Source of the DNA: Escherichia phage HK630
DNA: 47,090 bases
Sequence record: NC_019723.1
Direction: 5' to 3' (one strand)
Below the pieces are notes generated by a model. That model did not search any database. It worked only from the letters and a program-made list of their open reading frames with translations, and was not told the origin of the DNA. Made by a program: the position numbers and the translations under genes. Positions 32,628 through 44,826 of this stretch are shown piece after piece (the stretch's first letter is position 1; each line of letters opens with the position of its first letter).

Positions 32628-33044
32628 TTATACCTCTGAATCAATATCAACCTGGTGGTGAGCAATGGTTTCAACCATGTACCGGATGTGTTCTGCCATG
32701 CGCTCCTGAAACTCAACATCGTCATCAAACGCACGGGTAATGGATTTTTTGCTGGCCCCGTGGCGTTGCAAATGATCGATGCATAGCGATTCAAACAGGT
32801 GCTGGGGCAGGCCTTTTTCCATGTCGTCTGCCAGTTCTGCCTCTTTCTCTTCACGGGCGAGCTGCTGGTAGTGACGCGCCCAGCTCTGAGCCTCAAGACG
32901 ATCCTGAATGTAATAAGCGTTCATGGCTGAACTCCTGAAATAGCTGTGAAAATATCGCCCGCGAAATGCCGGGCTGATTAGGAAAACAGGAAAGGGGGTT
33001 AGTGAATGCTTTTGCTTGATCTCAGTTTCAGTATTAATATCCAT
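32628..33044 (-). CDS. gam: Gam (RecBCD inhibitor)
   Basis: 138-aa [62 protein letters not shown]..., lambda Gam. Confidence 0.95.
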
Positions 33045-33142
33045 TTTTTATAAGCGTCGACGGCTTCACGAAACATCTTTTCATCGCCAATAAAAGTGGC
33101 GATAGTGAATTTAGTCTGGATAGCCATAAGTGTTTGATCCAT
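32999..33142 (-). CDS. kil: Kil host-killing protein
   Basis: 47 aa [47 protein letters not shown] within the longer ORF-track frame. Confidence 0.8.
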
Positions 33143-33275
33143 TCTTTGGGACTCCTGGCTGATTAAGTATGTCGATAAGGCGTTTCCATCCGTCACGTAA
33201 TTTACGGGTGATTCGTTCAAGTAAAGATTCGGAAGGGCAGCCAGCAACAGGCCACCCTGCAATGGCATATTGCAT
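33111..33275 (-). CDS. cIII: CIII (FtsH inhibitor)
   Basis: 54 aa [54 protein letters not shown], identical to recalled lambda CIII. Confidence 0.93.
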   Translation of the reverse strand: MQYAIAGWPVAGCPSESLLERITRKLRDGWKRLIDILNQPGVPKNGSNTYGYPD

Positions 33276-33333
33276 GGTGTGCTCCTTATTTATACATAAC
33301 GGAAAACGCCTCTCGTGAAGCGTTATTGGTATG

Positions 33334-33362
33334 CATATAAAAAGGCCCTCACATTGGAGGGC
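33334..33362 (-). terminator. rho-independent terminator upstream of cIII in the leftward operon (tL2-like)
   Basis: Stem GCCCTC/GAGGGC (33345-33350 / 33357-33362) with a 6-nt loop, followed on the minus strand by a T-run. Confidence 0.5.
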
Positions 33363-33572
33363 AAAGAAGATTTCCAATAATCAGAACAAGTCGGCTCCTG
33401 TTTAGTTACGAGCGACATTGCTCCGTGTATTCACTCATTGGAATGAATACACAGTGCAGTGTTTATTCGTATGCCTGTCTTTTAACCACATCAGGCTCGG
33501 TGGTTCTCGTGTACCCCTACAGCGAGAAAAATAGTAAAATCCTCTTACCCCTACAGTAAGAGAGTAATTTAT

Positions 33573-34067
33573 ATGGATGTGTTATCTGGTATAACTGCCG
33601 CGAAACAGGCTTATGATCTGCTGAAGACAATAAAAGAAACCAGAGACGATGCTGTTATCGCTAAAGCTATTGGTGATCTACACCAAAGAATAACTGACTT
33701 ACAGATGCTTAATGCGGAGCTCTCTGGCCTTTATCAGGCCGAGAAGGAGATCGCAATGAAGCTTCGAGATGAAAATAGAAAAATCAAGATGTTTGTTGTG
33801 CAAGCTGAGAATTATGAACTTCATACAACTGAAGGTGGTTCTGTCGTGTATCGACCTAAGAGTCATTCCGATCATTCTATTCAGCAGCATAACCTTTGTG
33901 CACATTGCTTCGGCGAACATAAAATATCGATACTTCAACCAAGCACGGTTACTATAAAATCTAATGGATTCTTTGTGCATTCATGTCCTCGCTGTAAGAA
34001 TGAATACCGGATGTATAGAGCGCCAGACCCTAAGCCTGTATATGTACCGCCGCTGACAAATTATTAA
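33573..34067 (+). CDS. hypothetical coiled-coil / zinc-ribbon protein, transcribed opposite to the pL operon
   Basis: 164-aa ORF with SD AAGAGAG 8 nt upstream of ATG; helical heptad-like N-terminus; C-terminal CAHC...CPRC pairs; no lambda gene recognised here. Confidence 0.6.
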   Translation: MDVLSGITAAKQAYDLLKTIKETRDDAVIAKAIGDLHQRITDLQMLNAELSGLYQAEKEIAMKLRDENRKIKMFVVQAENYELHTTEGGSVVYRPKSHSDHSIQQHNLCAHCFGEHKISILQPSTVTIKSNGFFVHSCPRCKNEYRMYRAPDPKPVYVPPLTNY

Positions 34068-34097
34068 TTTTATTCCTGAAATGGCCTCTTCACCCCC

Positions 34098-34460
34098 TTA
34101 CTTTGTCAGGGGGATATCTCCTTCAGTTTTGACCATTCGCCTTAATACTTTCCTTAAGTCGATGTAAAGTTGAAGGTCTCCATTTGCTGCGGCATCAGCC
34201 ATTTTTTGCCTGACAAGCAGTAATGTTTCATACGGCTCAATAAGAATATCGTCATGAGTAATTAGGTGAAGCGTTGCCGCATCAACTATTCCTAGAGCTG
34301 CGCCAAGTATCAAAAATTCCCTGCTATTTTTGTCGCATGAGGAGATAAGCGTATTTAGCGCATACCTAATATTCTTTATAGCTGTTGTTAATGCTGCAAT
34401 TTCTTCTATGGCGTCTTCTCCAATGAGCTTTTTAAGCTCATATTTTTCTTCCTGACCCAT
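34098..34460 (-). CDS. hypothetical protein immediately downstream of N (position of lambda sieB)
   Basis: 120 aa from ATG 34460 (MGQEEKYELKKLIGEDAIEEIAALT...) with GAGGT SD; starts 3 nt after the N stop; not hydrophobic, so unlike SieB. Confidence 0.55.
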   Translation of the reverse strand: MGQEEKYELKKLIGEDAIEEIAALTTAIKNIRYALNTLISSCDKNSREFLILGAALGIVDAATLHLITHDDILIEPYETLLLVRQKMADAAANGDLQLYIDLRKVLRRMVKTEGDIPLTK

Positions 34461-34462
34461 AA

Positions 34463-34735
34463 TTACCTCGCCGTCAGTTGTTTTGATTTCCGGTAGCCTG
34501 CCGCGTAAATGGCTACGTTTGGCAGGCAAATACTTCCACTGCATTCTTCTGCCTTCTTGCAGCGAATGCTTCCGAGTGATGCTGCTTTATCTGCTCTGAC
34601 GCAACCAGAGAGCTTTAGCGCAATTTTTCGCGCCAGTCGCTGCTCTTGCATTGCCTGTTCACGTTGAGCCTGTCTGCGTGCTCTGCGGCGATTTCTGGCG
34701 TTATCGTCAGCCAGATATGTAATGACTACTGTCAT
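34463..34735 (-). CDS. N: N-like transcription antiterminator
   Basis: 90 aa; arginine-rich motif NARNRRRARRQAQREQ near the N-terminus; C-terminus ...LPNVAIYAAGYRKSKQLTAR resembles recalled P22 gp24; GGAGG SD; nut site downstream. Confidence 0.75.
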   Translation of the reverse strand: MTVVITYLADDNARNRRRARRQAQREQAMQEQRLARKIALKLSGCVRADKAASLGSIRCKKAEECSGSICLPNVAIYAAGYRKSKQLTAR

Positions 34736-34839
34736 GTTGACCTCCGATGATTGACTTTGGCGGTGACGCGCCGGGTGCTTATCTTCAGGTTGCCGTCGTG
34801 CAGCTGCACTTCACGTCACCCCAAAGCCAACTACTCTTT

Positions 34840-34885
34840 GGTTCCCGCATTTCGGCGGGACAATCCCATCAATGTTAAAGAGCCT
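34840..34885 (-). promoter_or_regulatory. nutL: nutL (boxA GCTCTTTAAC, boxB hairpin CCCGC-CGAAAU-GCGGG)
   Basis: On the leftward transcript, boxA-like CTCTTTAAC followed by a 5-bp stem/6-nt loop hairpin; the same boxB recurs at nutR. Confidence 0.65.
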
Positions 34886-34924
34886 GCCAATCTGTTCCGT
34901 TTGGCTTCCAGCGTCCTGCTGATG

Positions 34925-35035
34925 GCTAAAGAATACTGTAGGTATTTTATTGTGTAAATACCCAAGGTATTTATTTTTGATGAAATAATGATAAACAAAT
35001 GAATACAAAGGATATTTATTTTTTCGCTGTCTGCT
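34925..35035 (-). promoter_or_regulatory. OL / pL operator-promoter region
   Basis: Perfect 19-bp palindrome TAAATACCCAAGGTATTTA (34955-34973) plus imperfect copies GAATACTGTAGGTATTT (34931-34947) and GAATACAAAGGATATT; upstream of nutL and N. Confidence 0.6.
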
Positions 35036-35102
35036 TGTTCAGTGATTTTTATGCGGGATATGTGAAGTGGATCCCGATAGCTATTGCTGCCGGGATTATG
35101 GG

Positions 35103-35471
35103 TTAGTCAGCGAAGGTTAAGACGAGAATTACCTTAATGATGTCTGCTACAACAGACACGGCCATAGATAAACCAAAGACGATCCAAGCCACAGTGATGT
35201 CTTCACTACCATCGTATAGAGTTCCGTAATCACTGGTGTAAGGCGTAAATGTCGCGCCTTGATACAATAGGTATAAGCTTGATCCATAGAGGATAAATGC
35301 AGATATCCCTTGTATTGCTATGATCACAAGAATCATGAAACGAGCTGATCTATGCGCCCAAGCCTGGCTTATTTTTTCTGATAGAGATTTCGCAATAAAA
35401 GCATGCGCTAAGACGTAAATTGTCGAGATTGCCAACATCCCAAAAAAGCTTGCTATAGCGGTTCCAACCAT
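35103..35471 (-). CDS. hypothetical integral membrane protein co-transcribed with cI (position of rexAB)
   Basis: 122 aa from ATG 35471 (a TTG at 35492 would give 129 aa); about 3 predicted TM segments; AAGGGG SD; begins 18 nt after the cI stop. Confidence 0.65.
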   Translation of the reverse strand: MVGTAIASFFGMLAISTIYVLAHAFIAKSLSEKISQAWAHRSARFMILVIIAIQGISAFILYGSSLYLLYQGATFTPYTSDYGTLYDGSEDITVAWIVFGLSMAVSVVADIIKVILVLTFAD

Positions 35472-35488
35472 AATCGCCCCTTGCGTGA

Positions 35489-36205
35489 TCAAACCAGCCT
35501 TAGTTTTGTCTCAATTGCAACGCCTATAATCTTGCAGTTTCCATTGATTGGCACGAGAGGCCATGCAGGATTAAGTCCCTTGAGGTATTTATTTCCGCCG
35601 TCGATTATCAGCTTCTTGAATGTTGCTTCGTTAGAGTCAGAAAGTTTTGCTATGACCAAGCTGCCGTTGATCGCCTCCCTTCCGGTATCGAAAAGAACGA
35701 ATGTTCCCTCTGGAATGCTTAACCCAACCGGTGCCGTCATTGAATCACCTTCCACTTTAAGCCAGAACGCATTACCTTGAATATGCGCGTCAGACTCAAG
35801 CCAAACATCTATGTCTTTAATGGTGTATGGTTCGCATGCTTCACACCACGAGCCAGCCTGGATACTGCTTAACACCGGATACCTCTTTCCTGCTCTGTAT
35901 TCCCCTGCATACCTTACGTTGGCATCGCTCTTAAGGCTTTCTGCCTGTTCTGCAACCTTGGCAACAATTGACTGGCTAAAATCAGCAATAGAGACTTGCA
36001 ACAATCGTGCAAAACCAGATGCAACCTCAACGTTTAGCGCGTTTCTGCCATTAAGATAATGCCCTACCGCTCCTTGGGTGATACCCAGTTCATCAGCGAT
36101 TGAGTATTGGGTTATTCCCAATTCTTTCTTTTTTGACTCATACAAAGCCTTAAGCCGCTTAGCGTCTTCGAGCTGTTCTGTCGTCAGTGATTTTTTATTT
36201 TCCAT
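35489..36205 (-). CDS. cI: CI-family repressor (HTH N-domain + LexA/S24-like C-domain), non-lambda immunity
   Basis: 238 aa MENKKSLTTEQLEDAKRLKALYESKKKELGITQ...; C-terminal ...WLKVEGDSMTAPVGLSIPEGTFVLFD...ATFKKL... resembles CI/C2 autocleavage domains. Confidence 0.9.
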   Translation of the reverse strand: MENKKSLTTEQLEDAKRLKALYESKKKELGITQYSIADELGITQGAVGHYLNGRNALNVEVASGFARLLQVSIADFSQSIVAKVAEQAESLKSDANVRYAGEYRAGKRYPVLSSIQAGSWCEACEPYTIKDIDVWLESDAHIQGNAFWLKVEGDSMTAPVGLSIPEGTFVLFDTGREAINGSLVIAKLSDSNEATFKKLIIDGGNKYLKGLNPAWPLVPINGNCKIIGVAIETKLRLV

Positions 36206-36300
36206 AGCTTAATTCTAATAGCTAAGGTACTTAAACTAAAAATACCCTGAGTATTGATTGCTTTGAATACCTGTAGTATTCTTTGTTCATGGTTAATAAC
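36206..36300. promoter_or_regulatory. OR operators with divergent pRM/pR
   Basis: Operator-like palindromes AAATACCCTGAGTATT (36238-36257) and GAATACCTGTAGTATTC (36264-36283) between divergent cI and cro, same half-site as OL. Confidence 0.6.
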
Positions 36301-36311
36301 GGAGAGTGCAT

Positions 36312-36506
36312 ATGATTCGAATGACACTTGCCGATTACGCCAAAATCCATGGACAGGCTAAAGCAGCCAGTGACTTTGGTGTAATCCAGTGCGCTATCAG
36401 CAAGGCCATTCTGGCAGGCCGTAACATCATGGTTACGGTAAAGCCTGATGGCAGTGTGATTGGAGAGGAAGTTCGTCCTTTCCCAAGCAACAAGAAAAAC
36501 AAATAG
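36312..36506 (+). CDS. cro: Cro-like repressor
   Basis: 64 aa [64 protein letters not shown], similar to lambda Cro in the HTH and C-terminal PFPSNKK; GGAGAG SD. Confidence 0.88.
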
Positions 36507-36511
36507 TAACA

Positions 36512-36561
36512 CCGCTCTTTAACAGTCATGGTCCTCATTCCCGCCGAAATGCGGGAATACA
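36512..36561 (+). promoter_or_regulatory. nutR: nutR (boxA CGCTCTTTAA, boxB hairpin identical to nutL)
   Basis: CGCTCTTTAA at 36512-36521 and hairpin TCCCGCCGAAATGCGGGAA at about 36540-36560, between cro and cII. Confidence 0.65.
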
Positions 36562-36614
36562 ACGCGCATAAGTTGATGCGCATAACTTCTTATTTGTTAA
36601 GGAAATACTTACAT

Positions 36615-36893
36615 ATGCAACTTACAAGTACTCGCAAGAAAGCGAATGCAATTACAAGCAACATCCTAAATCGAATTGCTGTACGTGGTCAGCGAAAGGT
36701 TGCTGATGCATTAGGGATCAATGAATCGCAAATTTCGCGATGGAAAGACAGCTTTATCCCAAAGATGGCCATGCTTCTGGCTGTGCTGGAGTGGGGTGTT
36801 GAAGACGAGGAGTTGGCGGAACTGGCTAAGAAAGTAGCCAGAATGCTGACAAAAGAAAAAGCCCCGAAGAACGGCGAATTCTTCGAGGCCTAA
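36615..36893 (+). CDS. cII: CII-like transcriptional activator
   Basis: 92 aa from ATG 36615; ...[45 protein letters not shown] closely matches recalled lambda CII ([25 protein letters not shown]). Confidence 0.88.
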
Positions 36894-36927
36894 TGTAGAA
36901 AGACTGGATCAATCCACGGGAGTAATT

Positions 36928-37074
36928 ATGACAAAACAACTCAGTCCTTACCAGGACAAAATTCACAAACACATACTACGTGATCGCTTCCTGTCCAGCT
37001 TCAAGCAGCCTGGTCGATTCCGGGCTGAGTTGGAAAAAGTGAAGCTGATGCAGAAGGAGAAAGGTCATGAGTAA
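36928..37074 (+). CDS. small basic hypothetical protein (48 aa) overlapping the O start
   Basis: ATG 36928 with GGAG 8 nt upstream; [48 protein letters not shown]; below the ORF-track size cutoff. Confidence 0.35.
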
Positions 37075-37966
37075 CATATCTAATCTAGCCGAAGCCAGAG
37101 AGGCCAGAAGGCTACAACAACCGCATCAAAGCAGCGGTAAGGGGTATGCCTTGCTGCACCGTAAAATTATGGATGTGCCGTTTTACAAGGACGCAGAAGC
37201 AGCGCATCTGTGGGTTCACTTAATTCTCAAAGCAAAGCATACGCCTGAGTATGTAATGACTGACGCAGGAGAAATTCTGGTAGGCAGAGGGAAGCTACTT
37301 GGCGGTAGAAACTCTCTGGCGTTTGAAACAGGACTCAAACCAGATCGCGTTCAGTACCTGCTTAGAAAGTTCAAAAAACTCGGCATGATTGACTGGGTTT
37401 CACACGGTAAATTCTCAGTTTTCTCGGTAGAGAAATATGACGATTATCAGTCAAATTTTGTACCAGCAGATTACCAGCAAATTACCACCTCAAAGCCAGC
37501 AATACCAATGCCTGTAAGCAATACTGTACCAGCAGATTACCAGCAAATTACCACAGATAAAGAATATAATAATATTATCTCTAATACTGACGTATTAGAG
37601 AGTGCCACAGTAGACAAAAAGTCTGACAAGAAAAAACCTTCCGTTAGCTGTCAGGATGTTGTCGATGCTTACCACGAAATCCTTCCTGAAGCGCCAAAAA
37701 TCCGCGCACTGAATGACAAGCGTAAAAACCAGATCCGAACGTTCTGGCGCAAAGCCGGAGTGATAACCCGCCAGCTTGACGGGCATGGGTTCACGATGCA
37801 GGACTGGAGAAATTATTTGATCTACGTAGGCGAAAATTGCCGATGGATGTTCGAAGAACGCCCAAACCATCAACGCGGAACCGTCTGGCACAAAAAGGGA
37901 TTTGATTTCCTGCTTAACGACAATACCTACCTGAAAGTTCGTGAGGGTGAACACGATGACCGATAA
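37067..37966 (+). CDS. O: replication initiator (O-like), iterons embedded in the coding sequence
   Basis: 299-aa ORF at the position of lambda O; the internal direct repeats encode the duplicated [10 protein letters not shown] peptide. Confidence 0.8.
37460..37600. repeat. ori: replication origin: two 29-bp direct repeats (six ~11-bp TACCAGCA iterons) plus AT-rich stretch
   Basis: GTACCAGCAGATTACCAGCAAATTACCAC at 37460-37488 and 37526-37554, followed by AGATAAAGAATATAATAATATTATCTCTAATA. Confidence 0.65.
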
Positions 37967-39392
37967 TTTTTATGCGCCGCCCCATAGCATCGAGGCAGAG
38001 CAGGCGGTGATTGGTGGATTGCTTCTGGATGATGACAGCAGTGAGCGCGTCCAGAAAGTTCTGGCGATGCTGAAGCCTGACTCATTTTACAGCCGGCCAC
38101 ACAAAATCCTTTTCGAAGAAATAACCAGAATGCACCGGGAGCAAAAGCCAGTAGATGGCCTGACGCTTTTCGATGAACTGGAGCGTAAATCGTTAACGGC
38201 GTCTGTTGGCGGTTTTGCTTATATCGCTGAGATCGCAAAGAACACGCCGAGCGCCGCAAACATCGTTGCCTATGCAATGCAGGTTCGTGAAACCGCAATG
38301 GAACGCTACGCCATCAACCGCATGACTGAAGCGACGGAATTGCTCTATTCCCGCAACGGAATGACTGCAACGCAGAAGTACGAAGCTATTCAGGCGATTT
38401 TCACGCAACTGACAGACCATGCAAAAACCGGATCGCGTCGCGGCCTTCGCTCATTTGGTGAGGTCATGGAAGACTGGGTTAGCGACCTTGAGAAGCGATT
38501 TGACCCGTCAGGCGAACAGCGAGGAATGAGCACAGGGATCCCATCGCTGGACAGGATGCTGTCACCGAAAGGTCTGGTGAAAGGTTCTCTGTTTGTCATT
38601 GGCGCTCGCCCTAAGATGGGGAAAACGACGCTATACAGCCAGATGGCAATCAACTGCGCAGTGCATGAGAAAAAGCCCGCTCTGATGTTCAGCCTTGAAA
38701 TGCCAGGTGACCAGATACTGGAAAAACTGGTAGGGCAGAAGTCTGGTGTTAACCCGAATATTTTTTACCTTCCGGCGACAAATGACGCTGATGACGGCTA
38801 TCAGGGTGATTACGATGGTGACTTCAACAGGGCGATCGAAACAGCCAATCGCTTGAGTGAAATCGACATGCTTTACATCGACGACACGCCGGGATTATCT
38901 CTGGCTCAAATCGTCAGCGAAAGCCGTCGAATCAAGCGAGAAAAAGGATGTGTTGGCATGATTCTGGTCGATTACCTGACACTAATGACCGCTGAAAAGG
39001 CCGATCGCAACGACCTTGCTTACGGCATGATCACCAAAGGACTGAAGAACCTTGCCAAAGAGCTTGATTGCGTTGTTGTGCTTCTGACGCAGCTTAACCG
39101 CGCATTGGAAAGCAGAACCAATAAACGCCCATTACCAAGTGACTCACGAGATACAGGGCAGATTGAACAGGATTGCGATTATTGGGTGGGGATCCATCGT
39201 GAAGGCGCTTTTGATGACAGTGTTCCACCTGGTGAAACTGAACTAATCCTTCGTCTCAATCGTCATGGCAATACCGGCACGGTGTATTGCATTCAGGCAA
39301 ATGGCGCTATTTATGACACCGACCAACAGTCTGCTGAAATGCGCCGCCGTGAACGCGAGGAACCGCAGTCCAAGAAGAAAGGAGGATTCTGA
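37956..39392 (+). CDS. DnaB-family replicative helicase
   Basis: 478 aa from ATG 37956, overlapping the O stop; Walker A GARPKMGKTT and DnaB-like N-domain (SIEAEQAVIGGLLLD). Confidence 0.85.
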   Translation: MTDNFYAPPHSIEAEQAVIGGLLLDDDSSERVQKVLAMLKPDSFYSRPHKILFEEITRMHREQKPVDGLTLFDELERKSLTASVGGFAYIAEIAKNTPSAANIVAYAMQVRETAMERYAINRMTEATELLYSRNGMTATQKYEAIQAIFTQLTDHAKTGSRRGLRSFGEVMEDWVSDLEKRFDPSGEQRGMSTGIPSLDRMLSPKGLVKGSLFVIGARPKMGKTTLYSQMAINCAVHEKKPALMFSLEMPGDQILEKLVGQKSGVNPNIFYLPATNDADDGYQGDYDGDFNRAIETANRLSEIDMLYIDDTPGLSLAQIVSESRRIKREKGCVGMILVDYLTLMTAEKADRNDLAYGMITKGLKNLAKELDCVVVLLTQLNRALESRTNKRPLPSDSRDTGQIEQDCDYWVGIHREGAFDDSVPPGETELILRLNRHGNTGTVYCIQANGAIYDTDQQSAEMRRREREEPQSKKKGGF

Positions 39393-39420
39393 TGACCATC
39401 TACATCACTGAGCTAATAAC

Positions 39421-39453
39421 AGGCCTGCTGGTAATCGCAGGCCTTTTTATTTG
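39421..39453 (+). terminator. rho-independent terminator after the helicase gene (tR2-like)
   Basis: Stem AGGCCTGC/GCAGGCCT with 8-nt loop followed by TTTTTATTT. Confidence 0.7.
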
Positions 39454-39467
39454 GGGGAGAGTAAATC

Positions 39468-39674
39468 GTGGCTGAGTTGATTTTCTCTGCATTGAGGATT
39501 CTCGGTGCTATGTGGATGGTGGCGACGTTCATTGTGGTTGCCAGCAGTTTTGTCCGGTTGGTAGGCGAAGGTAAAGACCTGGTTGGTGTGCTTTTCGGTA
39601 GCATTTTTCTGTGGGTGATTATCGGTGTTATGCCTGTCGCTGTAGCAAAAATGGCGTGGCGTTTTGTTAGTTGA
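39468..39674 (+). CDS. hypothetical small two-TM membrane protein
   Basis: 68-aa ORF from GTG 39468 with GGGGAGAG SD; two hydrophobic helices, basic C-terminus KMAWRFVS. Confidence 0.5.
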   Translation: MAELIFSALRILGAMWMVATFIVVASSFVRLVGEGKDLVGVLFGSIFLWVIIGVMPVAVAKMAWRFVS

Positions 39675-39681
39675 GGTGACA

Positions 39682-40092
39682 ATGAAGCAAACAATCTTCC
39701 TCCGAACTAAGCAACAACAGCAAGCTGCAATAAATGCCATCCTCGCAACACCACTCGATAAAGACAAGCCAGTCACCATCCGCATTACTGACTACAAGCG
39801 CAACCTTGACCAGAACGCAAAATTTCACGTGATGCTGGCGGATATCGCTCGTCAGGTTCAATGGTGCGGCAAATGGTTAAAACCGGAACAATGGAAGGTT
39901 TTGTTGATCAGCGGTCATGCAGTGGCTACAAAGCAGGAAGCTGATGTTTTGCCCGGCCTTGAAGGCGAATACGTCAACATTCGCGAAAGCAGCGCGCAGA
40001 TGAGCGTGAAGCGCATGGCAAGCCTGATTGAGTACACGACAGCATGGGCTATTGGTCAGGGTGTCAGATTTACCGACAGGAGGTACGAATGA
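39682..40092 (+). CDS. ninB: NinB (Orf-family recombination mediator) homologue
   Basis: 136 aa from ATG 39682 with GAGGTGA SD; ...[27 protein letters not shown]... resembles recalled lambda NinB (RSLDQNRKLWACLGDVSRQVEWHGRWL) but is divergent. Confidence 0.75.
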
Positions 40093-40265
40093 GACGACAG
40101 CGACGAAGTTTCACCGACATCATCTGCGAAAACTGCAAATACCTTCCAACGAAGCGCTCCAGAAATAAACGCAAGCCAATCCCAAAAGAATCTGACGTAA
40201 AAACCTTCAACTACACGGCTCACCTGTGGGATATCCGGTGGCTAAGACATCGTGCGAGGAAATGA
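40089..40265 (+). CDS. ninE: NinE
   Basis: 58 aa [58 protein letters not shown]; ATGA overlap with the ninB stop. Confidence 0.8.
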
Positions 40266-43180: not shown

Positions 43181-43584
43181 ATCTGCACAACAGGTAAGAG
43201 CATTGAGTCGATAATCGTGAAGAGTCGGCGAGCCTGGTTAGCCAGTGCTCTTTCCGTTGTGCTGAATTAAGCGAATACCGGAAGCAGAACCGGATCACCA
43301 AATGCGTACAGGCGTCATCGCCGCCCAGCAACAGCACAACCCAAACTGAGCCGTAGCCACTGTCTGTCCTGAATTCATTAGTAATAGTTACGCTGCGGCC
43401 TTTTACACATGACCTTCGTGAAAGCGGGTGGCAGGAGGTCGCGCTAACAACCTCCTGCCGTTTTGCCCGTGCATATCGGTCACGAACAAATCTGATTACT
43501 AAACACAGTAGCCTGGATTTGTTCTATCAGTAATCGACCTTATTCCTAATTAAATAGAGCAAATCCCCTTATTGGGGGTAAGAC

Positions 43585-43908
43585 ATGAAGATGCCAGAAA
43601 AACATGACCTGTTGGCCGCCATTCTCGCGGCAAAGGAACAAGGCATCGGGGCAATCCTTGCGTTTGCAATGGCGTACCTTCGCGGCAGATATAATGGCGG
43701 TGCGTTTACAAAAACAGTAATCGACGCAACGATGTGCGCCATTATCGCCTGGTTCATTCGTGACCTTCTCGACTTCGCCGGACTAAGTAGCAATCTCGCT
43801 TATATAACGAGCGTGTTTATCGGCTACATCGGTACTGACTCGATTGGTTCGCTTATCAAACGCTTCGCTGCTAAAAAAGCCGGAGTAGAAGATGGTAGAA
43901 ATCAATAA
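43585..43908 (+). CDS. S: holin S (S107/S105 dual start)
   Basis: 107 aa [34 protein letters not shown]... with Met1 and Met3 starts and three TM segments. Confidence 0.95.
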
Positions 43909-44368
43909 TCAACGTAAGGCGTTCCTCGATATGCTGGCGTGGTCGGAGGGAACTGATAACGGACGTCAGAAAACCAGAAATCATGGTTATGACGTCATTG
44001 TAGGCGGAGAGCTATTCACTGATTACTCCGATCACCCTCGCAAACTTGTCACGCTAAACCCAAAACTCAAATCAACAGGCGCCGGACGCTACCAGCTTCT
44101 TTCCCGTTGGTGGGATGCCTACCGCAAGCAGCTTGGCCTGAAAGACTTCTCTCCGAAAAGTCAGGACGCTGTGGCATTGCAGCAGATTAAGGAGCGTGGC
44201 GCTTTACCTATGATTGATCGTGGTGATATCCGTCAGGCAATCGACCGTTGCAGCAATATCTGGGCTTCACTGCCGGGCGCTGGTTATGGTCAGTTCGAGC
44301 ATAAGGCTGACAGCCTGATTGCAAAATTCAAAGAAGCGGGCGGAACGGTCAGAGAGATTGATGTATGA
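43892..44368 (+). CDS. R: endolysin R (lytic transglycosylase)
   Basis: 158-aa [38 protein letters not shown]..., overlapping the S stop. Confidence 0.95.
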
Positions 44369-44826
44369 GCAGAGTCACCGCGATTATCTCCGCTCTGGTT
44401 ATCTGCATCATCGTCTGCCTGTCATGGGCTGTTAATCATTACCGTGATAACGCCATTACCTACAAAGCCCAGCGCGACAAAAATGCCAGAGAACTGAAGC
44501 TGGCGAACGCGGCAATTACTGACATGCAGATGCGTCAGCGTGATGTTGCTGCGCTCGATGCAAAATACACGAAGGAGTTAGCTGATGCTAAAGCTGAAAA
44601 TGATGCTCTGCGTGATGATGTTGCCGCTGGTCGTCGTCGGTTGCACATCAAAGCAGTCTGTCAGTCAGTGCGTGAAGCCACCACCGCCTCCGGCGTGGAT
44701 AATGCAGCCTCCCCCCGACTGGCAGACACCGCTGAACGGGATTATTTCACCCTCAGAGAGAGGCTGATCACTATGCAAAAACAACTGGAAGGAACCCAGA
44801 AGTATATTAATGAGCAGTGCAGATAG
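44365..44826 (+). CDS. Rz: spanin inner-membrane subunit Rz
   Basis: 153-aa ORF with N-terminal TM and coiled-coil. Confidence 0.93.
44585..44767 (+). CDS. Rz1: spanin outer-membrane lipoprotein Rz1 (embedded in Rz, +1 frame)
   Basis: 60 aa with lipobox LVVVGC and a Pro-rich segment, nested entirely inside Rz. Confidence 0.88.

Follow-up and report, generated by a model that had tools for sequence, protein, structure and literature searches.

The best-described relative of the locus studied here is the lambda switch, in which 17-bp operators, symmetric about a central base pair, are spaced 24 and 23 bp apart at OR, with O1 over the -10 element and O2 between two -35 elements. The third OL site of lambda stands 20 bp from OL2, rexAB lies between cI and OL, and OL and OR are separated by ~2.4 kb. 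Lambda repressor contacts base pairs 4 and 3 through Ser45 and Ala49, respectively; the roles of its Ala-Gly, Ser and Lys residues in self-cleavage are established, and the -10/N6/ATG geometry of lambda PRM (TAGATT-TAACGT-ATG) yields a leaderless mRNA. The immunity region of phage HK620 was deposited as AF335538 / NC_002730, a record reportedly originating from Clark, Inwood, Cloutier and Dillon in 2001 (J Mol Biol 311:657), and annotates pL, OL1, OL2, OL3, tIMM, cI, OR3, OR2, pR and OR1, together with cro, N, hkaS, nutL and nutR. Phage mEpX2, in turn, is reported to differ in immunity group from lambda, HK022 and phi80; double and triple lysogens of mEpX2 and lambda form (PMC3442831).

The DNA analysed here is the 47,090-nucleotide sequence of Escherichia phage HK630 (NC_019723.1), referred to as a whole as the window. 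Its switch contains the following genes:

N, 34463-34735, minus strand, Pfam N_peptide.
cI repressor, 35489..36205, minus strand, 238 aa, Pfam HTH_3 at 8e-10 (N-terminal HTH) and Peptidase_S24 at 5e-24 (C-terminal).
cro, 36312..36506, plus strand, 64 aa, Pfam Cro at 3.6e-26, recognition helix QCAISKAIL.
cII, 36615-36893, downstream of cro, Pfam Phage_CII.

Gene order equals that of the lambda switch, and both cI and Cro are orthologous to their lambda counterparts (E=1e-51 for cI against lambda repressor 3bdn; E=5e-19 for Cro against lambda Cro 1cop/5cro). The two genes diverge from a 106-bp spacer, as expected of a lambdoid cI/Cro switch with a tripartite operator. OL and OR lie only ~1.28 kb apart, and a single 122-aa membrane ORF between cI and OL takes the place of rexAB. 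The self-cleavage motifs of lambda cI are retained, IQAGSW, EGDSMT and FKKLI aligning with VQAGMF, EGNSMT and FKKLI of 3bdn. Since cI keeps the elements of RecA-stimulated self-cleavage, namely the Ala-Gly site and the Ser/Lys dyad, induction should be RecA-dependent.

Comparison with HK620 identified the immunity type. The region 34700-36600 is 99.9% identical to AF335538 over 1901 bp, the near-identity extending to cI, cro and the operators, and the annotated positions correspond when HK620 coordinates are converted to those of the window (locus + 33199). Five of the six operators annotated in HK620 (OL1, OL2, OR3, OR2 and OR1) coincide exactly with sites of the family described below. As these operators have been annotated in GenBank since 2001, our reading of them is correct and is not a discovery. 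The feature is an ordinary, known HK620 immunity module on a lambda chassis: the window is a mosaic in which positions 1-24000 are 100% identical to lambda/HK629 structural genes and the lambda red region extends to ~33468. HK620 matches it (98.4% identity) at about 33040-40262 only, the structural genes and red region being those of lambda instead, whereas HK629 has the left arm in common (100% over the first 24 kb) and differs in its P22-type immunity. The same module occurs at 98.6-99.6% identity in HZ41, mEpX2 (99.3%), phi296, phi367, HF4s, HK140, 611R6 and two Stx2c phages, and it is common in E. coli, being present at ≥99% identity in 146 of 5426 complete genomes. The open literature searched yielded no binding, footprint or EMSA data for the HK620 operators, cI or Cro; what is gained here is strong comparative support for predicted operators that, in that literature, have apparently never been footprinted.

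An earlier note on this DNA, made from the sequence alone, had described an operator family AATACC-N3-GGTATT at OL and OR and had suggested searching the window for further copies. The 47,090 bases contain exactly four copies of the core AATAC-N5-GTATT (34932-34946, 34957-34971, 36241-36255 and 36266-36280), compared with 0.01 occurrences expected from dinucleotide-preserving shuffles, of which 0 in 100 reached four. All four copies are located at PL or within the cI-cro intergenic region, which bears out the family at OL and OR. Allowing up to one mismatch raised the count to seven, including 35002-35016, against 1.25 expected. The one-mismatch matches at 21621 and 34003 were dismissed as chance occurrences, since 1.25 such matches are expected and their PWM scores, at most 7.2, fall under the shuffle maximum.

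The family as first written needs one amendment: the sixth position of AATACC can be T as well as C, and AATACY-N3-RGTATT or AATAC-N5-GTATT describes the sites more accurately. The sequences quoted in the earlier note for OL and the cI-cro region were each found in place (TAAATACCCAAGGTATTTA at 34955-34973, AAATACCCTGAGTATT at 36240-36255 and GAATACCTGTAGTATTC at 36265-36281), but the first of these, presented as a perfect 19-bp palindrome, actually consists of 8-bp arms flanking a non-symmetric 3-bp centre (CAA). There are further copies at OL, as claimed, yet one of those called weaker, 34932-34946, is OL1 and has a perfect core. At OR, the earlier note overlooked OR3 (36217-36231, AATAGCTAAGGTACT, two mismatches). 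The operators and promoters are as follows:

OL1 operator, 34931..34947, AGAATACTGTAGGTATT with core AATACTGTAGGTATT at 34932-34946; exact core, overlaps the PL -10.
OL2 operator, 34956..34972, AAATACCCAAGGTATTT; exact core, adjoins the PL -35.
PL promoter, 34930..34958, minus strand; -35 TTTACA (34958..34953), 17-nt spacer, -10 TATTCT (34935..34930).
OR3 operator, 36216..36232, TAATAGCTAAGGTACTT; two core mismatches, final base starts the PRM -10.
OR2 operator, 36240..36256, AAATACCCTGAGTATTG; exact core, adjoins the PRM -35.
OR1 operator, 36265..36281, GAATACCTGTAGTATTC; exact core, overlaps the PR -10.
PR promoter, 36254..36282, plus strand; -35 TTGATT (36254-36259), 17-nt spacer, -10 TATTCT (36277-36282).
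Putative PRM promoter, 36212..36240, minus strand; -35 TTTAGT (36240..36235), 17-nt spacer, -10 TAGAAT (36217..36212).

Three dyad-symmetric intergenic sites thus lie across PR and PRM, with a second set across PL, which is the layout of a tripartite switch. Site centres fall at 36273, 36248 and 36224 in OR and at 34939 and 34964 in OL (plus 35009), with centre-to-centre spacings of 25 bp for OR1-OR2, 24 bp for OR2-OR3 and 25 bp for OL1-OL2. The 17-bp length, the axis on a base pair and the placement of O1 over the -10 and of O2 between two -35 elements are all as in lambda, the 25/24 spacing at OR differing from the 24/23 of lambda. PL is the only sigma-70-like match in 34700-36700 and falls inside the HK620 pL annotation; PR was read from the sequence and falls inside the pR annotation. 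The two promoters are built alike, each with its -10 inside O1 and its -35 next to O2; OR2 reaches 3 bp into the PR -35, or 2 bp if only the 15-bp core is counted. PRM, which has no GenBank annotation and is proposed here, has its -10 element 6 nt from the cI ATG (TAGAAT-TAAGCT-ATG), and this geometry, being that of lambda, implies a leaderless cI mRNA.

When a PWM built from other, diverged loci was scored over the 47-kb window, OR2, OL2, OL1 and OR1 ranked 1 to 4 in that order, the site centred at 35009 ranked 5 and OR3 ranked 8. OR3 is weak, with a score of 9.7 compared with an average of 11.1 for the best score in composition-matched shuffles; as it lies below this mean maximum, it is assigned by its position and conservation, not by score.

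Conservation was examined at increasing distance. Eight close relatives (98.6-99.9% identity) have two variable columns in OR and nearly invariant OL sites, and because they are too alike to test conservation, diverged genome loci were used. Relatives of the cI N-terminal domain, taken at one genome per species, gave ~30 prophage loci of 58-85% identity from Serratia, Yersinia, Pectobacterium, Pantoea, Lonsdalea, Proteus, Morganella, Providencia, Enterobacter and other hosts. In 30 distinct loci, the 71 nt upstream of cI (2.1 kb in total) hold 70 family sites at ≤1 mismatch, and 77,430 nt of control sequence hold 0 at the same threshold. At least two sites are present in 24 of these 30 loci and three sites in 18, spaced by 24-25 and 23-24 bp. 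The stacked alignment has its information peaks at AATAC and GTATT, with the central bases free to vary, and most of the 30 have a site at the OR3 position, ~-19 relative to the cI ATG. The PR -35 (TTGAnn) and -10 (TATTnT) are conserved as well, as is a TAnAAT-like hexamer 6-7 nt ahead of the cI ATG.

One diverged switch is that of Serratia phage vB_SspS_OS31 (85% identity), whose cro-cI family sites have centres 25 and 24 bp apart and which carries more sites downstream of cI, 25 and 45 bp apart, these spacings equalling those of the window. OS31 and the ~30 Enterobacterales prophages, which have the cI helix (T/S)QGAVGHYLNGRN, have in common with the window the half-sites, a three-site OR (about -67/-43/-19 relative to the cI ATG) and a lambda-type Cro with helix Q-x-A-I-S-K, although some of the prophage loci are without a lambda-type Cro. 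They differ from it in the cI N-terminal domain (58-85% identity) and the flanking genes, and the distance of their OL3 from OL2 is 21, ~30 or 45 bp. At the level of sequence comparison, the prediction that the same helix goes with the same operator is borne out in the diverged loci. The loci were retrieved partly by the peptide word GHYLNGRN, which is located in the cI recognition helix, so the invariance of the helix is partly a selection effect.

The claim that the half-site (A/G)AATAC(C/T) is unlike the operators of lambda, 434 and P22 held when those operators were read from their records, all of which differ from the sites found here. The sites conform neither to the lambda pattern TATCACCGC(N)GGTGATA (operators read from NC_001416) nor to the 434 (ACAA-N6-TTGT) and P22 (ANTNAAG-N4-CTTNANT) patterns. 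Conversely, the operator regions of lambda, 434 and P22 type contain no family site, the last two having been read from the lambda imm434 and HK629 (P22-type) intergenic regions, where the operators are unrelated dyads. In the 17-bp register the lambda half-site is T1 A2 T3 C4 A5 C6 C7 and that of the HK620 type is (A/G)1 A2 A3 T4 A5 C6 C7, so that they differ at positions 1, 3 and 4 and are equal at 2, 5, 6 and 7.

The recognition helices diverge as well, in agreement with the earlier note: QCAISKAIL compared with QSAINKAIH of lambda for Cro, and QGAVGHYLNG compared with QSGVGALFNG for cI. The Cro helix residues changed from lambda are Ser28 (H2), here Cys, and Asn31, here Ser; in the lambda Cro complex, Ser28 contacts base pairs 4-5 and Asn31 base pair 3 (PMC6649833). 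The published Cro code (Hall, Lefevre & Cordes 2005; PMC6649833) pairs Gln at H1 with A+2, Ala at H3 with A+5 and Lys at H6 with C+6, and all three pairings are found between the helix Q-C-A-I-S-K and the half-site. The half-site changes at positions 1, 3 and 4 accompany matching changes in the recognition helices.

We consider it very probable that these predicted operators at OL and OR serve a lambda-type switch between lysis and lysogeny and that its immunity specificity is that of HK620. Because the build of PR and PL, the geometry of PRM, the alignment of cI and its cleavage motifs are those of lambda, we infer a lambda mechanism, including binding, order of site occupancy, PRM activation and any OL-OR looping. 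Dimers of cI and Cro would bind the 17-bp dyads by way of the half-site. If lambda is a guide, cI bound at OR1 and OR2 would turn PR off and activate PRM, and cI on OR3 would turn PRM off, giving autorepression; Cro would occupy OR3 first, in the order opposite to cI. OL1 and OL2 cover PL, which would likewise be repressed by cI on O1/O2, and a weak third OL site may lie 45 bp beyond OL2, at 35002-35016. RecA-dependent cleavage of cI would then lead to prophage induction.

Could some protein other than cI or Cro bind the palindromes instead, or are these AT-rich promoter DNA that is symmetric by chance? The half-site GTATT shares bases with -10-like hexamers (TATTCT, TATTAT), and part of the conservation could accordingly reflect promoter function. 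However, both half-sites are conserved, also outside the hexamers, as in the OR2 and OL2 inner halves, and accidental symmetry would hardly produce three sites spaced as in lambda, with central bases free to vary, while 77 kb of control DNA contain none. Against another regulator, the half-site agrees with the recognition-code prediction for the helix of this Cro, and no further DNA-binding gene is common to all loci. Such an origin is therefore highly improbable. It is scarcely credible, too, that the module, different as its sequence is, should be functionally equivalent in immunity to lambda or some other classical phage. The equal half-site positions 2, 5, 6 and 7 (TATCACC compared with AATACC, 17-bp register) and the clear orthology of cI and Cro with those of lambda speak for such a shared immunity; against it, half-site positions 3 and 4 and the Cro residues Ser28 and Asn31 (Cys and Ser here) differ, and the operator regions of lambda, 434 and P22 type are devoid of family sites. 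Moreover, mEpX2, which carries this module, belongs to another immunity group, is heteroimmune to lambda and co-lysogenises with it (PMC3442831), indirectly supporting the different immunity specificity that the earlier note had proposed.

The third OL site requires separate treatment, as the family site and the GenBank annotation disagree:

Proposed third OL operator, 35001..35017, GAATACAAAGGATATTT, core AATACAAAGGATATT at 35002-35016; one mismatch, 45 bp from OL2.
HK620 GenBank OL3, 34978..34994, TGATGAAATAATGATAA; membership of the operator family unsupported.

The earlier note had left the first of these unplaced. It lies 45 bp from OL2, compared with 20 bp in lambda, and this distance is 21 bp (two helical turns) more than the 24-bp OR2-OR3 spacing. 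Its dyad is invariant in the eight close relatives, and a family site exactly 45 bp from OL2 is also present in the diverged loci L011, L012, L015, L038 and L039. The annotated OL3, on the other hand, mismatches 6 of 10 core positions, scores -24.9 with the PWM (rank 6928) and has variable columns in the close relatives; between centres 34974 and 35000 every register has at least 5 core mismatches. In five diverged loci the third site is located 21 bp from OL2, the position of the GenBank OL3. As some loci have the site at 45 bp and others at 21 bp, there are two OL3 placements within the family. The spot 21 bp from OL2 is where the HK620 annotators looked.

On these comparisons, the OL3 annotation of HK620 is probably wrong and 35002-35016 is probably the better third OL operator; that the latter is a genuine, if weak, cI site we regard as likely. 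It is doubtful, though it deserves some weight, that OL has only two functional operators or that the GenBank OL3 is the true one, with 35002-35016 being the terminator of the cI operon (tIMM) or a relic of an A-rich block. The record does place OL3 at 34978-34994 and tIMM at 34991-35021, the tIMM dyad overlapping 35002-35016, and the loci with a third site 21 bp from OL2 fit the annotated position. In addition, 35002-35016 overlaps the A-rich block AAAAATAAAT, which is widely conserved even in loci that form no dyad, and L019, L025 and L031 have just two OL sites. Set against the annotated OL3 are its core mismatches and its score. A two-site OL fits poorly with the rank of 35002-35016, fifth in 47 kb and ahead of OR3, and with the perfect family sites that L038 and L039 carry exactly 45 bp from OL2. 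As for a terminator, RNA folding at 35002-35016 gives a weak, A/U-only stem without a clean U-tract, and a pattern scan of 34975-35105 detected no intrinsic terminator downstream of the cI operon.

Beyond correct annotation, the importance of the module in HK630 is small. For the family as a whole, we lean towards the view that the OL of HK620-type phages has been mis-annotated for 25 years and that AATAC-N5-GTATT defines a pan-Enterobacterales class of repressor specificity with OL3 at 21 or 45 bp. If this is true, the family would offer a natural test-bed for how the position of OL3 bears on long-range OL-OR looping and PRM autorepression. The specificity itself, which is common to many enterobacterial genera, provides a natural example for studies of the recognition code of repressor and Cro.

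The HK630 window (1-47090) is a natural-looking mosaic of lambda-like and HK620-like parts. The structural genes of lambda, together with att-int and the red region, occupy it up to ~33468, and the early region from 33040 to 40262 (N, immunity, O, P and ninB) is HK620-like, with an identity of 98.4%. Past 40262, lambda-like segments alternate with HK620-like ones; the lysis genes, at 43477-44609, are 94% HK620-like. The right half of the window was covered by no record in the phage collection. The first 24 kb are identical in HK629, which instead possesses P22-type immunity.

Three ORFs were located around N and cI:
33573-34067, + strand: hkaP-like ORF of 164 aa, on the strand opposite to the PL operon
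34098-34460, - strand: hkaQ-like ORF, downstream of N
35103-35471, - strand: hydrophobic ORF of 122 aa (hkaS of HK620), between cI and OL

The hkaP-like ORF, which has two CxxC pairs at its C-terminal end, fills the sieB position, and both it and the hkaQ-like ORF match families of unknown function (PHROGs 1244 and 7374). The hkaS ORF occupies the place taken by rexAB in lambda; a Pfam search with it returned no match, and it matches PHROG 6534, likewise a family of unknown function. Since every close relative retains hkaS alongside the immunity module, this ORF is a candidate for a prophage-expressed exclusion or membrane function.

One further element was observed on the cI side of OL2, the second predicted operator at PL:
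35013-35025: A-rich block (C)AAAAATAAAT, reading ATTTATTTTTTCG on the + strand of the window, compared with loci L011-L039

The block is positioned ~48-57 bp from OL2 and is kept in nearly all of the diverged prophage loci (L011-L039), both where it makes an operator-like dyad and where it does not. It may represent an operator relic, a piece of a terminator, or a distal element of PL that is UP-like or IHF-related.

Four Morganella loci (L029, L030, L034 and L036) are without a lambda-type Cro upstream of cI and have only two family sites (AATAC-N5-GTATT) downstream of cI, 45-47 bp apart, with the promoter-proximal site near the next gene; judged by sequence, this is the same half-site in a different operator architecture. 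A separate locus, L037, resides on a 799-kb contig (CACSKA010000001.1) labelled Chryseobacterium sp. 18061, a Bacteroidota genus, and contains an Enterobacterales-type cI/Cro module whose cI N-terminal domain is 67% identical; the assembly is likely mislabelled or contaminated.

Comparison with L005, L006 and L007 revealed that the leader from nutL to the N start (34735-34830) is an insertion hotspot in relatives otherwise ~99% identical, with ~203 bp extra in HK140, ~87 bp in 611R6 and ~340 bp in Stx2_EH1904. Where transcription of the PL operon begins (34905-34929, …CCAGCGTCCTGCTGATGGCT…), the bases are near-identical in the window, lambda imm434 and HK629, while the operators just upstream are unrelated among the three, indicating a sharp left boundary of an exchangeable immunity cassette.
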